Source: an uncultured bacterium
Lineage (GTDB): Bacteria > Eisenbacteria > RBG-16-71-46 > CAIMUX01
Direction of reading: 5' to 3'
Assembly: GCA_964473865.1 (NCBI GenBank)
Contig: CAYYQN010000003.1
Coordinates: 2,545-66,544 of the forward strand
Length of the DNA stretch: 64,000 nucleotides
The position numbers and the translations under genes are program-made. Each line of letters starts with the position of its first letter. The stretch's first letter is position 1. A model generated the notes under the pieces. It saw only the letters and a list, made by a program, of their open reading frames with translations, made no database searches and had not been told where the DNA came from. Positions 35,696-40,386 of this stretch are shown here, one piece after another.

Positions 35696-36552
35696 TCCGG
35701 TGCTCCCGTGTGCTTCGTCTCGAACCGCCAGGTCACGCGTGGACGCCCCGTGTTCGGATCCACCTCCGCGCGCAGGGGTGTCCGGAACACCGGCTCCAGA
35801 TTCGCAGGAGTCAACACGGCTCCGGGCGGGCCCTCTGCGACCACCCGCCCTTGATCCATCAGGAGAAGGCGGTCGCAGAAAGCCGCCTGGAGATCGATGT
35901 GATGGTCGGCCACAACGGCCCCGACCTGGTGCTGGCGACACAACTCGCGGATCTGTTCGTAGATGTGCCGCTGGTATCCGAGGTCGAGGCTGGCCACCGG
36001 CTCATCGAGGAGGAGAACCCTGGCCTCCTGGGCGAGCGCCCGCGCGAGCAGGGCACGCTGCCACTCCCCCCCGCTCAGCGTGCCCACCGCCCGGTTGCGT
36101 AGTGCCGAAAGTCCGACGCCGATCAGGGCGCGCTCTACGACTTCCCCATCCTCCTTCCGCTCCCGCCAGGCTCGTCCTCGATGAGGATGCCTTCCAAGAG
36201 ACACCATTTCGCTAACTGTCCATTCGAAGGGGGTTTCCGCGCGCTGTGGAACCCAGGCCACCCACCTGGCCCGGTCTCGGGGAGACACCTTCTCCACTGG
36301 TTGTCCACAGATGTAGACAACCCCTCGCAGAGGTGTCGCCAACCCTGCCATGACCCGAAGGTATGTCGACTTTCCGGCGCCATTCGGGCCGAGCAGACCA
36401 ACGAGTTCTCCCGCAAGGAGTTCCAGCCGCTCTACCGACAGAAACGGCCTCCCGCCAAACCCGAAACCGATCCCCTCCGCCACGAGCAACAACTCGCCAT
36501 CGCGGGAAGAGCTCAGGCTGTAACACGTTGATTTAGATCGGGTTATGTCCAT
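35692..36552 (-). CDS. ABC transporter ATP-binding protein (FecE/BtuD-like)
   Basis: GPNGAGKST (Walker A), LSGGEWQRALLARAL (signature), LLLDEP (Walker B), H-loop. I prefer the MDITRSKST start at ~36552. The track start at 36636 would overlap the divergent DUF5658 gene. Confidence 0.8.
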   Translation of the reverse strand: MDITRSKSTCYSLSSSRDGELLLVAEGIGFGFGGRPFLSVERLELLAGELVGLLGPNGAGKSTYLRVMAGLATPLRGVVYICGQPVEKVSPRDRARWVAWVPQRAETPFEWTVSEMVSLGRHPHRGRAWRERKEDGEVVERALIGVGLSALRNRAVGTLSGGEWQRALLARALAQEARVLLLDEPVASLDLGYQRHIYEQIRELCRQHQVGAVVADHHIDLQAAFCDRLLLMDQGRVVAEGPPGAVLTPANLEPVFRTPLRAEVDPNTGRPRVTWRFETKHTGAPE

Positions 36553-36616
36553 TATTCTTGCTTCGCGGGGTGGCCCGTTGATGCCTCCCTCGTCTTCAAG
36601 TAGAATAGGAGGTGTC

Positions 36617-37084
36617 ATGCAAGCGGTCGACACCATAAGGCGCCAGGGACACGACCGCAGACGGCGTCCGACGCCGGCGCTGAGTCGCTACACCTTTCTT
36701 GGCGGCCGACGCCGAGGTCCTCGCCGAACCACCGATCCCCAAGCGGTTTACGTGGATCAACTGGGCTGGGGGCTTGTCTCGATCCTACTCCTGATCTTCG
36801 TCTTCCACGTCCTGGATGCCATGTTCACGCTGGCCCACATCGCCCGCGGGGGCACCGAGCTGAACCCGTTCATGGACTTCTTCCTCAGCCGGAGTCCCGC
36901 GACGTTCGTGGCGGCCAAACTGGGTATCGCGGGCCTGGGACTCCTCTTTCTGGCGTTTCACGGCCGGTTTCCCATGGTGCGTAAGGGAATCGCCGTGATC
37001 TTCCTGCTTTACGCCGGAGTCGTCTGCTATCACTTCGTTCTGATCTGGCGGGCCGGAGCTCCACTCTGGCCGACGATCGTCTGA
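36617..37084 (+). CDS. DUF5658-family small membrane protein with Arg-rich N-terminal tail
   Basis: GGAGG sits 5 nt before ATG (MQAVDTIRRQGHDRRRRPTPALSRYTFLGGRRRGPRRTTDP...). Then 3-4 TM helices with the conserved HVLDAMFTLAHIARGGTELNPFM motif (D..T......G..E.NP) of DUF5658. The track ORF start at 36545 is an upstream extension. Confidence 0.55.
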   Translation: MQAVDTIRRQGHDRRRRPTPALSRYTFLGGRRRGPRRTTDPQAVYVDQLGWGLVSILLLIFVFHVLDAMFTLAHIARGGTELNPFMDFFLSRSPATFVAAKLGIAGLGLLFLAFHGRFPMVRKGIAVIFLLYAGVVCYHFVLIWRAGAPLWPTIV

Positions 37085-37126: not shown

Positions 37127-37690
37127 CTAGAACTGCACCTTGGGAGCCTGGTCCGCCCCGGCCTGAGCCTCGAAGAGCGTCGCCCCCTTGAATCCGAGGA
37201 ACCTACCGAAGACGTTGGTGGGAAAACGGCGCAGCTGAACGTTGTAGTCCCGCGCAATCTCGTTGTAGCGCCGCCGCTCTACCGCGATCCGGTTCTCAGT
37301 ACCGGCCAGTTCGTCCTGCAAGCGTATGAAGGTCTGGTCGGCCTTCAGGTTCGGGTACTGCTCGACCACCACGAGGAGCCGCGAGAGGGCGCCCGACAGT
37401 TGATCGTTGGCGTTGATCTTCTCTTCCGGGGTGCCGGCCCCAGCCACACGTGAACGTGCCTGGACCACAGCCTCGAGCGTCTCGCGCTCGTGCGCCGCGT
37501 AGCCTTTGACGGTTTCCACAAGATTCGGAATGAGGTCCATCCGGCGCTGAAACTGGTTCTCCACCTGTGCCCAGGCTGCCTTCACTCCTTCGTCGCTCTT
37601 CACCAGCCCATTGTAGATGCGGATACCGGAGAGAACGACGACAACCACGAGACCAACAAGAACCGCGAGAGAACATCCAAACCTCTTCAT
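37127..37690 (-). CDS. lemA: LemA-family protein
   Basis: A GGAGGAG RBS precedes the MKRFGCSLAVLVGLVVVVVLSGIRIYNGLV start. N-terminal TM, then NGLVKSDEGVKAAWAQVENQFQRRMDLIPNLVETVKGYAAHE...EQYPNLKADQ is a textbook LemA signature. Confidence 0.85.
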   Translation of the reverse strand: MKRFGCSLAVLVGLVVVVVLSGIRIYNGLVKSDEGVKAAWAQVENQFQRRMDLIPNLVETVKGYAAHERETLEAVVQARSRVAGAGTPEEKINANDQLSGALSRLLVVVEQYPNLKADQTFIRLQDELAGTENRIAVERRRYNEIARDYNVQLRRFPTNVFGRFLGFKGATLFEAQAGADQAPKVQF

Positions 37691-37745
37691 CTGGCTCCTC
37701 CTCTGAAGTGGGCCCGGCACGGGTGACGCCGTGAAACCCCTTCTC

Positions 37746-38465
37746 TCACCACTGGTCGACCTCTTCAGACAGACGTGTCAGTACCTCCAGCAACCGTCCA
37801 AACTGCGCGTTCGCCACGTGGCGAGCCGGTGTCGTGCGGGAGAGACGCATGGCGTGAAGCTCGGCAAGAAGATCCGGCGGTACAGGCAAGAGCTCGGAGC
37901 AAGCCTTCCACGCCGGATCTCCTTCTTCCCGCCAGGGTCCTCCCTTCAGAAAGAGAAGTCCGCGGAAGATGGCCAGCAATGACGGCCAGCCCCGATCGAG
38001 AATCTGCTTGAGCCGTTTTGGCGCGCCTTCGCTCTCGATGTAGGCCCGGCGGACGAGCAGCAGCTTTGACCGAATCTCCCGTTCGCACTGCAGACGGACA
38101 TGCTCTGTCTGGAAGGAGAGTCCCGCCAGAGGATCGTCCCCGTGCAGCACCCGGTACCGCGCGGTCATCGACAGGAATTCCAGGGGCCACGAATCCAGGG
38201 CCCGGGCGATGAAGACTGGACGTACCACCAGGGGAGCGGAGATCCGGCGCCGGCGCCACTTCCCGGCCAGCGCCGCGAAACGCTCCAGGAGAGCAAGGTC
38301 CACTGGATCGGCCACGATCAGGAAGTTGTAGTCGGAGACACCGGGACGGAACTGCGGTCCCAGGGCGCTGCCGTATGCCACCACTGAACGGAGCGAATCT
38401 CCGGCACGCTCGCGAACGCCCTCGACGAATCCGCCGAAGACCGTTTCGTGGTCCGCCATGGTCAT
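37746..38465 (-). CDS. nucleotidyltransferase-fold protein (KNTase-like; catalytic triad apparently degenerate: GS-x11-SDYN)
   Basis: SLRSVVAYGSALGPQFRPGVSDYNFLIVAD fits the polymerase-beta-type NTase GS...DxD motif with the second Asp replaced by Asn. A ~130-aa helical C-terminal domain follows. It is wedged between lemA and a TPM gene. Confidence 0.5.
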   Translation of the reverse strand: MTMADHETVFGGFVEGVRERAGDSLRSVVAYGSALGPQFRPGVSDYNFLIVADPVDLALLERFAALAGKWRRRRISAPLVVRPVFIARALDSWPLEFLSMTARYRVLHGDDPLAGLSFQTEHVRLQCEREIRSKLLLVRRAYIESEGAPKRLKQILDRGWPSLLAIFRGLLFLKGGPWREEGDPAWKACSELLPVPPDLLAELHAMRLSRTTPARHVANAQFGRLLEVLTRLSEEVDQW

Positions 38466-38546
38466 TCTCCTCCATCGCGCGGACCTCGAGATTCCCGGGT
38501 CGTCGCATTCGTCTCTGCGGCAGATCCCGGCTCCCGACGGCCTCGC

Positions 38547-39431
38547 TCAGAATCCACGTCCCGCGCCGCCACCCCCGCTTCCACCTCCGCCAAAGCCCCC
38601 GAATCCACCCCCGCCGCCCCCGAATCCTCCGCCTCCGAAGCCCCCGAACCCTCCAAAACCTCCGAATCCGCCCCCACCGTATCCGCCGGGCCCCCGGTAG
38701 CGCCGGCGGTCCAACAGCGAGACGAGGATGACGATCCCAACCAGGATCGCCAGCAACCTGAGGCTGGTCGGGTTCGTGCGGACCGGTGTCCGCCCCGCGC
38801 CGTATCCACCCGAGGCGAGCAACGCGTCCAGTTGCGCAGGGTCTTCGCCCTGTTCCGCGAGGATCAGACCGAAGCAGGCGCGGGCCGCGGAGGCGAACGC
38901 CTGCTCCGCCTTCCCCTCGCGCAGAAACGGCACCACATCTTCGTCCAGGATCTGGCCGACGCGACCATCGTTGAGCACGCCTTCCAGCCCGTATCCAACC
39001 TCGATCCAGGCGTAGCTCTTGCCTGGTCCCCGCGCCAGGTAGAGCAGGAGGAGGCCTTGATCGGTCTTCTTGTTTCCGACCTTCCACGCCCCGAACAGCC
39101 GATTCGCGTACTCCCGCGGCTCCTCGTCGCCGATATCGGTTGTCGTGACCACCGCCATCTGGACACCGAACTTTTCGTCAGCCCGGGAGAGAAGCAGCTC
39201 CAGACGGCCGCGGGCAGGCGCGCTCAGGACCCCGGCAAAATCGTTCACATAGCCCGTGGGCCGTGGATAGTCCGACGACGACGACGACGCGGATCCCGAC
39301 CACGAGAGGAGGAGGCCGCCCAGGATTACCAGGAGGAGCGTCCGATGTCGCGATCCGGCGAGTGGACCCCACACGGGTCTCCATCCAAAGCGGCGCCACC
39401 CACCTGTGTTTCTCCGTGCCGGGACGAACAT
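38547..39431 (-). CDS. TPM-domain (YgcG-like) membrane protein with Gly-rich (GGFGGFGG...) C-terminal tail
   Basis: YVNDFAGVLSAPARGRLELLLSRADEKFGVQMAVVTTTDIG...DQGLLLLYLARGPGKSYAWIEVGYGLEG (TPM), then a TM helix, then YGGGGFGGFGGFGGFGGGGFGGGGGGFGGFGGGGSGGGG. The start could be up to 39470. Confidence 0.75.
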   Translation of the reverse strand: MFVPARRNTGGWRRFGWRPVWGPLAGSRHRTLLLVILGGLLLSWSGSASSSSSDYPRPTGYVNDFAGVLSAPARGRLELLLSRADEKFGVQMAVVTTTDIGDEEPREYANRLFGAWKVGNKKTDQGLLLLYLARGPGKSYAWIEVGYGLEGVLNDGRVGQILDEDVVPFLREGKAEQAFASAARACFGLILAEQGEDPAQLDALLASGGYGAGRTPVRTNPTSLRLLAILVGIVILVSLLDRRRYRGPGGYGGGGFGGFGGFGGFGGGGFGGGGGGFGGFGGGGSGGGGAGRGF

Positions 39432-39609
39432 GGGTAGAATCTGGCACACGTCCCCGATCTGTGGCAGCAAAATCGACGGCTCGGTGGAAGCTACCGCGCA
39501 GTCGGGCTATGCTCCGCCGGAGCGGCGGCGCCCCCGGGCGGATCGCCCCGGGTGAGAGATCTCCGGCCGGGAGGGGCCGCCCCCTCCGGTCAAGCCAGGG
39601 AAGGCAGAG

Positions 39610-40386
39610 GTGGCCACGCCCCTAACGACAGGTCCGGGAGAGGTCATTGTCCGGCGACAGGTGGACGACACGACGGCCTGCCTTGTGGCCTCGGGCGACT
39701 TTGCCGATCTGCTGGCCGCGTGGTGGCGGCACGTCGTGCTCTGGGAAGGTGAGCCGGACGGCCTGTCGTCCATCCTCATGCGGCAGGGGCTGGCCGCGGC
39801 GGTGTTGCACTTGTCCAATCGTCCGCGCAACGAGACGATGGCCTGGACTCTGAACCTGAAACAGCCGCCGACGAATCTCTTCCTCACGGGAAGCGCCCTC
39901 GACGGAACGATCACCGGTCGGGTCTTCACGGTCGGGGTGAGAACCGAGGAGTCAAGCCGCCTGTTTGTCCAGGTCGTGAGGCCTCGCGGTGAACCGCAGA
40001 CGAGCCGGCTCGACGTCTCGGGATTCGACGTCCTGGAGATCTTCGCGCAGTACTTCGATCGCTCGGAGCAGAGTCCCGCCCGGTTCTTCCTTCTTGGACA
40101 AGAGCGGTTCGCGGCGGTGTTTGGCCTGCCGGGGGCCGACTCTGAGTGGCTGCAGGCGCTGGGAGTCGAGGAGGCGCGGGATCTGGTGCACTCGGCCCGG
40201 ACGATCGAGGAGCGGCGATTTCGGTTTGAGTGCGGCTGCTCCCCGACACGAATCGTCGAGGTCATGCGCTCAATCTTCGCGAAGGATCCGAGTGAGCTCT
40301 TTCATGACGAGAATCGGGTCGAGGTCTTTTGTCCCCGCTGCGGCCGGCGCTGGTGGGTGGACCGGGAGCAATTCGATGCAGGTTGA
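39610..40386 (+). CDS. hslO: Hsp33-family redox-regulated chaperone
   Basis: LEIFAQYFDRSEQSPARFFLL parallels E. coli Hsp33 LEDYFMRSEQLPTRLFI. The C-terminal zinc centre is FRFECGCSPTRIVEVM...VFCPRCGRRWWV (CxC...CxxC). GTG start after GGGAAGG. Confidence 0.75.
   Translation: MATPLTTGPGEVIVRRQVDDTTACLVASGDFADLLAAWWRHVVLWEGEPDGLSSILMRQGLAAAVLHLSNRPRNETMAWTLNLKQPPTNLFLTGSALDGTITGRVFTVGVRTEESSRLFVQVVRPRGEPQTSRLDVSGFDVLEIFAQYFDRSEQSPARFFLLGQERFAAVFGLPGADSEWLQALGVEEARDLVHSARTIEERRFRFECGCSPTRIVEVMRSIFAKDPSELFHDENRVEVFCPRCGRRWWVDREQFDAG

Follow-up and report, generated by a model that had tools for sequence, protein, structure and literature searches.

What is a protein with a nucleotidyltransferase (NTase) fold doing between the genes of a TPM protein and a LemA protein? 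The question is raised by a 64,000-nucleotide stretch of contig CAYYQN010000003.1 from an uncultured bacterium of the Eisenbacteria lineage, called the window below (G+C content 65.7%). Both LemA proteins (PF04011) and bacterial YgcG-type TPM proteins (PF04536) are very widespread and, to our knowledge, neither has an accepted function. Three same-strand open reading frames (ORFs) occupy positions 37127-39470 of the minus strand, in the transcription order TPM_A, NT, LemA. They encode an exported YgcG-type TPM protein of 275 amino acids (aa) (TPM_A, 38547..39374), a two-domain protein of 237 aa, predicted to be cytoplasmic (NT, 37746..38459), and a single-pass membrane protein of 187 aa (LemA, 37127..37690). 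The original prediction, made from the same DNA, regarded this cluster as a LemA-TPM module interrupted by a degenerate NTase inserted between its two genes, and suggested that the triple arrangement might define a variant of the LemA/TPM system.

A scan of species-representative genomes revealed at least 582 loci with an NT relative, and the best 80 were surveyed for neighbouring genes. These 80 loci belong to Candidatus Eisenbacteria, which includes the closest NT relative (79% identity), to many Desulfobacterota, and to Chitinivibrionales, Fibrobacterota and Pirellulales. As was found by searching six-frame ORFs with the window proteins, nearly all of them carry TPM, NT and LemA in this order on one strand. 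Among the informative loci, meaning those with enough flanking sequence, TPM lies directly upstream of NT in 64 of 67 and LemA directly downstream of NT in 70 of 73. The gap between the NT stop and the LemA start has a median of 2 nucleotides (nt), and in 17 loci the two genes overlap or abut. All-against-all clustering across the 80 loci yielded no further conserved neighbour beyond TPM, NT and LemA. More distant NT members (25-35% identity) still adjoin TPM and/or LemA, with some reshuffling: the order is unknown gene, NT, LemA in P0089, NT, TPM, LemA in P0084 and NT, TPM in P0079. Thus the NTase is conserved next to lemA in relatives, and the proposal that the triple arrangement defines a variant is borne out both by nearly all 80 loci and by the distant members. 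Judging from gene order and homology, the TPM-NT-LemA triad is a distinct and widespread LemA/TPM variant occurring across several phyla.

Lineage-specific additions to the cluster were also seen. A Smr-domain ORF lies directly 3' of LemA on the same strand in 17 of the 80 loci, all of Desulfobacterota (for example, L005 11167-11616 (+), PF01713, E 1e-21), and another ORF of 112 aa without a Pfam match occupies this position in 14 further loci. Each of these ORFs may be a fourth gene confined to its lineage or simply an unrelated neighbour.

The comparison with canonical LemA/TPM modules shows in what way the triad differs. A tblastn search located LemA on 100 plasmid or chromid records, and LemA leads the pair in every one of ten annotated loci of this kind, with NT absent from them. 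The gene following LemA encodes TPM protein(s) in six of them and an M48 peptidase, a DUF2207 protein, a DUF3137 protein and a hypothetical protein in one each, which suggests, at the level of gene order, that LemA accompanies membrane proteins of different kinds as a general partner or adaptor. The triad resembles the loci with M48/HtpX-like peptidases, DUF2207 and DUF3137 in that LemA is the recurrent companion of a variable membrane protein, but in those loci LemA comes first and there is no NT. Several of the canonical TPM-type loci are themselves triads, in which LemA is joined by a long and a short TPM. Canonical and NT-type modules thus share the PF04011 and PF04536 families and both form three-component systems, whereas in the NT type the order is inverted, with TPM first and LemA last, the short hairpin-anchored TPM is missing and a cytoplasmic protein of the NT fold stands in the middle. 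The LemA-first order is absent from the window and from nearly all NT-linked loci. Of the NT-linked loci, 69 have a TPM match, and not one of these contains a second TPM ORF within 10 kb. Because the short TPM is absent from these loci and canonical triads possess one, we infer that NT displaced the short, cytoplasm-facing, hairpin-anchored TPM, and that the gene order was rearranged. The words "interrupted" and "inserted" are therefore misleading: canonical loci read LemA then TPM, the order here is TPM, NT, LemA, and the NT family seems bound to this context.

Loci L012 and L073 begin with NT and TPM, followed in L073 by LemA. The TPM tails of L073 and L056 belong to the canonical ...ASGGW type, and that of L012 ends in AGRGF, which is the NT-linked type. 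L012 and L073 may be intermediates between canonical and NT-type modules.

The NT family itself turned out to be sizeable. A word-indexed search gave 93 homologues at E<=1e-3, nearly all of 235-260 aa, and an exhaustive profile search gave 1,701 clusters at 50% identity with E<=1e-30 and 3,332 with E<=1e-10. The family is unnamed, no Pfam or NCBIfam model captures it, and it appears to be dedicated to the LemA/TPM context. A literature search revealed no paper describing the triad or the NT family; subscription journals were thinly covered, so this is absence of evidence only.

The relation of NT to known NTases becomes visible only at the level of the family and the fold. The NT sequence alone has no Pfam or NCBIfam match even at E<=10, including the curated NTase models PF01909 and PF18765, and a phmmer search of the PDB sequences returned nothing significant. 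It was the family profile, not the single sequence, that reached solved NTases; PF01909 matches 11 of 42 NT relatives at E<=0.01 (best 4e-06). An AlphaFold2 model built with a 42-sequence alignment has a predicted local distance difference test score (pLDDT) of 96.1 and a predicted template-modelling score (pTM) of 0.89. Foldseek matched this model to AadA, AAD(9), KNTase and HalB of the Hailong system, the best structural matches being ANT(3'')(9), AAD(9) and KNTase. In superpositions, MNT antitoxins match the N-terminal domain and HEPN toxins the C-terminal one. According to the model, NT is a protein of the AadA/KNTase/HalB type in which a minimal nucleotidyltransferase fold at the N-terminus is followed by a HEPN-like helical bundle, and so shows the combination of an NTase alpha/beta fold and a C-terminal helical domain that marks the KNTase/AadA-like two-domain type of the Pol-beta superfamily. 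This agrees with the original prediction of a KNTase-fold protein between TPM and LemA. Hydropathy analysis found no hydrophobic segment in NT, and so the protein should be cytoplasmic. One relative of 366 aa, P0225, carries four predicted transmembrane (TM) helices fused to an NT-family domain that keeps an SDIN motif. It is the only clear fusion among the best 150 NT representatives, and its composition is consistent with the action of NT at the membrane.

The active-site region is where NT departs from its structural neighbours. In the numbering of the 239-aa ORF, the motif reads Y31-G32-S33-ALGPQFRPGV-S44-D45-Y46-N47, and the remodelled element G32-S33-x10-S44-D45-Y46-N47 is encoded at 38325..38372 (-), with the D45 codon at 38331-38333 and the N47 codon at 38325-38327. 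The spacing proposed earlier, GS-x11-SDYN, is correct if counted from S33 to D45; written as a motif it is GS-x10-SDYN. The family profile, '...YGSa...SDlNflvV', aligns with '...YGS...SDIDfLiV' of the solved NTases 9xbd, 7uy4 and 4cs6. An hhalign comparison with AadA1, taken from an annotated plasmid, gave the same register, D45 corresponding to D47 and N47 to D49 of AadA1; it covers the first 46 columns only, and the position of the third carboxylate is outside it. N47 thus falls on the second Asp of DxD in AadA1 and in all three solved NTases. Proper alignment does not restore an intact DxD, and the loss of the second carboxylate, noticed in the original prediction, is real.

The loss does not look like decay. 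G32 is present in 172 and S33 in 161 of 174 NT members, preserving the phosphate-binding hG[GS] motif, and D45 is present in 160. Residue 47 is Asn in 158 members and Asp in 3, and the metal-binding [DE]h[DE]h motif of strand beta-2 is lacking. In AadA the catalytic base, Glu87, sits in strand beta-3. The predicted beta-3 of NT (residues 75-82, consensus V-A-x-P-L-F-L-T, with Pro78 invariant) contains no conserved acid, and D91, E96 or D111 could still reach the site. These three residues, P94, G109 and the block R124-L-Q126-C127-E128-R129-E130 are at least 95% conserved, the RLQCERE motif being near-invariant in the family, and R139 is conserved in 165 of 174 members. No HEPN Rx4-6H motif was found in NT; the conserved helix reads R124-L-Q-C-E-R129-E instead and contains no conserved His. 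Since Asn47 is kept family-wide together with GS, D45 and RLQCERE, the site should be regarded as remodelled and selected: to judge from its conservation, it is a family trait under selection, not local decay. The term "degenerate" is accordingly misleading, and the pseudo-enzyme or regulatory role that it was taken to imply is possible.

The TPM protein of the triad belongs to the YgcG type. TPM_A matches PF04536 with E 1.8e-30 (106 bits; cut-off 22.1), and its hydrophobic segments span residues 44-62 and 235-253 of the maximal, 307-aa ORF. The layout comprises a signal-peptide-like N-terminus, the TPM domain, one TM helix, an Arg cluster and a Gly/Phe-rich C-terminal tail, DRRRYRGPGGYGGGGFGGFGG...GGGSGGGGAGRGF, encoded at 38550..38711 (-) after the TM helix and the basic cluster. 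By hydropathy and tail composition, the same YgcG-type architecture was recognised in 67 orthologues and in TPM_B, the long TPM protein of a second pair in the window, and it is not seen in TPM_C, the short partner of TPM_B. The long TPM proteins of canonical modules likewise combine a signal peptide, a TPM domain, a TM helix and a Gly-rich tail ending in SGGGGA-x-G-x-aromatic. The tails had been described as low-complexity and extracytoplasmic. Their composition is as described, but the 67 NT-linked TPM proteins share, over their last 20 residues, a conserved motif that is near-identical across phyla, GGFGGFGGG[MLS]SGGGGAG[RG]G[FY]-COOH. The element FGGFGGG.SGG occurs in 61 of these 67 orthologues and a C-terminal F or Y in 65, despite TPM domains that are just ~35-45% identical. 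Canonical YgcG-type tails end in GGGGASG[SR]W, so that AG[RG]G[FY] of the NT type contrasts with ASG[SR]W. As to location, the tails of TPM_A and TPM_B follow the last TM helix and an Arg/Lys cluster; by the positive-inside rule they are probably cytoplasmic, not extracytoplasmic.

The LemA protein matches PF04011 over the full profile (positions 1-149) with 206 bits (cut-off 26.2) and E 3e-61. Its one hydrophobic segment spans residues 15-33 of the maximal, 197-aa ORF, and the 75 orthologues have one likewise. In the orthologues, the short N-terminus bears two or three Lys/Arg and no acid, and the C-terminal flank is net neutral. This charge pattern suggests, with moderate security, that the N-terminus lies on the inner side of the membrane and the LemA domain on the outer side.

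Some published observations concern the possible role of such modules. TPM domains have been proposed to be chaperone-like factors for membrane complexes (PMC11237479), and lemA together with a TPM gene is induced in an sppA mutant, a membrane-homeostasis mutant (PMC13236525). The literature is divided on whether TPM domains possess phosphatase/ATPase activity or bind metal.

The reading that we favour, tentatively and with slightly more doubt than belief, is that TPM_A, NT and LemA belong to a single operon whose products make up a three-part, membrane-associated system, a variant of the LemA/TPM module. The TPM and LemA domains would face the periplasm, and NT would be the cytoplasm-side third subunit, taking the place of the short hairpin-anchored TPM. 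NT would most likely bind Mg-NTP in the cleft between its two domains, with GS, D45, N47 and the R124/R129/R139 face of the RLQCERE helix as putative nucleotide contacts, and would not carry out classical two-metal nucleotidyl transfer. It might rather serve as a switch or adaptor governed by nucleotide, with the conserved cytoplasmic Gly/Phe tail of TPM_A, the short basic LemA N-terminus or both of these as its docking sites. In this manner the cytoplasmic nucleotide state would be coupled to a periplasmic TPM-LemA assembly, which may be involved in membrane-complex maintenance or in envelope stress. Several points weigh against this proposal. The 80 surveyed loci are the best-scoring relatives and no unbiased sample, and the share of LemA genes with an NT neighbour was gauged on plasmids only, where there are 0 NT matches as against 100 LemA-bearing records. 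The LemA topology is read from flanking charges only, and the Pfam description of LemA reportedly proposes the opposite orientation for a Listeria protein. A genuine enzyme with a non-canonical site would also account for the very strong conservation of several acids and a Cys, and RelA/SpoT-type synthetases, members of the superfamily to which NT belongs, likewise work with fewer carboxylates.

The main rival to the switch is accordingly an active enzyme whose non-canonical centre would consist of D45, N47 and E96, D111, E128 or E130, and perhaps C127. Such an enzyme would nucleotidylate a partner, for example LemA or the TPM tail at its conserved Ser or terminal aromatic residue, or would make a small nucleotide product controlling the module. 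GS, D45, N47, six charged residues and Cys127 are near-invariant at 25-80% overall identity, a degree of conservation more often met in working sites than on docking surfaces. The structural neighbours of NT include the protein AMPylators MntA, DrrA and GlnE and the Tyr-primed polymerase HalB, and possible targets in the TPM tail are its conserved '[MLS]-S-GGGG' element and its C-terminal aromatic residue. All the same, the second metal-binding carboxylate is replaced by Asn in the great majority of members, no conserved acid is found on the predicted beta-3 where AadA has Glu87, and the terminal residue of the tail is mostly Phe, which is unmodifiable. With these points set against each other, an active enzyme seems unlikely, though it deserves to be taken seriously. 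The more specific proposal that NT is an active pol-beta fold with a new arrangement, in which Asp-x-Asn is combined with the acids and Cys of RLQCERE to modify the TPM tail or to make a nucleotide signal, would be improbable. At the opposite extreme, NT could be a pure pseudo-enzyme scaffold that binds no nucleotide and acts as an adaptor between TPM_A and LemA. NTase-fold pseudo-enzymes do occur in eukaryotes (NF45/NF90), and NT has lost two of the three canonical carboxylates. The conservation of GS, D45 and N47 above 90% is, however, hard to explain without a ligand, and we consider the scaffold quite improbable.

The structural matches also bring to mind systems of conflict, in which the NTase would restrain a membrane effector as in Hailong or MNT-HEPN modules. 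In Hailong, HalB is a Tyr-primed oligo-dA synthase that keeps the membrane channel HalA closed. HalB needs its DxD (a D21A/D23A mutant has been solved), which according to a review is required to keep HalA in check, whereas NT has DxN. The partners LemA and TPM are single-pass proteins, and no multi-pass channel is present. The domains of NT resemble MntA-HepT in superposing on MNT antitoxins and HEPN toxins, but NT fuses the two in one chain, has neither DxD nor the HEPN Rx4-6H, in place of which the conserved block R-LQCE-R is found, and is embedded in a membrane-protein operon. An independent toxin-antitoxin identity of NT was rejected on these same points. A PADLOC search gave no match for the five proteins (the three of the triad and the TPM_C/TPM_B pair), though its 2023 library may predate Hailong; the only trace was a meaningless match of LemA to PglX (0.014). 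The context is not that of a defence island: the locus is syntenic with housekeeping genes in the three Eisenbacteria genomes compared and does not lie in an island, and NT was not found in 72,556 plasmids. A conflict system is very improbable on this evidence. It is barely conceivable that NT is an unrelated resistance enzyme of the aminoglycoside or lincosamide nucleotidyltransferase type lying at this place by chance. What speaks for it is that the best structural matches are such enzymes. Against it, the position of NT is conserved across phyla, the catalytic residues are missing, and identity to AadA/ANT(3'')(9), AAD(9) and KNTase/ANT(4') is just 10-15%, with the AadA1 profile alignment confined to its first 46 columns. 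NT differs from these enzymes also in the Asn at the second Asp, in the lack of a conserved beta-3 acid, in its own RLQCERE signature and in its genomic context. The neighbourhood survey effectively refutes NT as a resistance enzyme or bystander.

Returning to the layout of the locus, all five ORFs (TPM_A, NT, LemA, TPM_B and TPM_C) were found where the original prediction had placed them. The maximal ORFs of the triad extend to 39470 for TPM_A (307 aa), 38465 for NT (239 aa) and 37720 for LemA (197 aa). The shorter starts at 39374, 38459 and 37690 are likely, in view of the gene calls in a public contig with an identical NT protein (275, 237 and 187 aa) and of Shine-Dalgarno sequences, which precede the second ATG of NT and the LemA ATG at 37690, the latter being preceded by GAGGAGGAG. 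With these starts the intergenic gaps are ~85 nt between TPM_A and NT and ~55 nt between NT and LemA. The terminator scan detected no terminator-like site on the coding (minus) strand of the 37127-39470 cluster, and the sole terminator-like match of the region lies on the plus strand, inside lemA. Taken together, the promoter and terminator scans of the region gave nothing above chance, and terminator matches were no more frequent than in shuffled sequence. Genes on both flanks run the opposite way: an Hsp33-like gene upstream (39610-40386 (+)) and a DUF5658 gene downstream (36545-37084 (+)). The upstream gene is similar to Hsp33 over the C-terminal part of the profile only (E 8.5e-12); it adjoins the module in the two closest Eisenbacteria genomes (L001 and L002), and no match was found in L003.

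The second TPM pair, at 18053-19755 on the minus strand, had been described as paralogous and without LemA. The pair exists, and no second LemA was found anywhere in the 64-kb window, but its members are not like paralogues. TPM_B (18053..19105, PF04536, E 2e-44, 151 bits) is a long exported YgcG-type protein with three post-domain TM segments followed by KRTAWYRKAQTSLKRKGR, and its Ser/Gly tail ends in GGGGASGSW. TPM_C (19102..19755, E 4.5e-11, 43.3 bits), which overlaps TPM_B by 4 nt, is a short protein of the kind that forms the third component of canonical LemA/TPM/TPM triads; it matches PF04536 over residues 111-191. With the TPM profile its domain is split into two halves, residues 5-35 and 109-188, separated by a two-helix membrane hairpin (hydrophobic segments 42-60 and 78-96). 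It has no signal peptide, and to judge from this layout the TPM_C domain probably faces the cytoplasm, unlike those of TPM_A and TPM_B. Relatives of TPM_C always precede a long TPM, with LemA in front in P0323 and none in P0248 and P0250. The pair is flanked by a gene for a 1122-aa DNA polymerase III alpha-type protein with PHP, pol3_alpha, finger, HHH and OB domains (14607-17975 (+)) and by one for an 810-aa GH44 glycoside hydrolase that carries a FlgD-Ig-like domain at its C-terminus (19814-22246 (-)).

For the biology of these families, the triad links LemA/TPM to a sizeable uncharacterised family with a nucleotide-binding fold and leads to hypotheses that can be tested: that the conserved Gly/Phe tail has a cytoplasmic partner, that a nucleotide is the ligand, and that the short TPM was replaced by non-orthologous displacement. 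The natural change of Asp to Asn in an NTase catalytic motif, kept under strong purifying selection, also bears on how this fold is repurposed. If NT were active and modified the TPM tail or produced a signal, the triad would be a trans-membrane signalling device and would provide LemA/TPM systems with a biochemical activity. Being widespread, cleanly defined and testable, the TPM-NT-LemA triad offers a new handle on LemA/TPM function.

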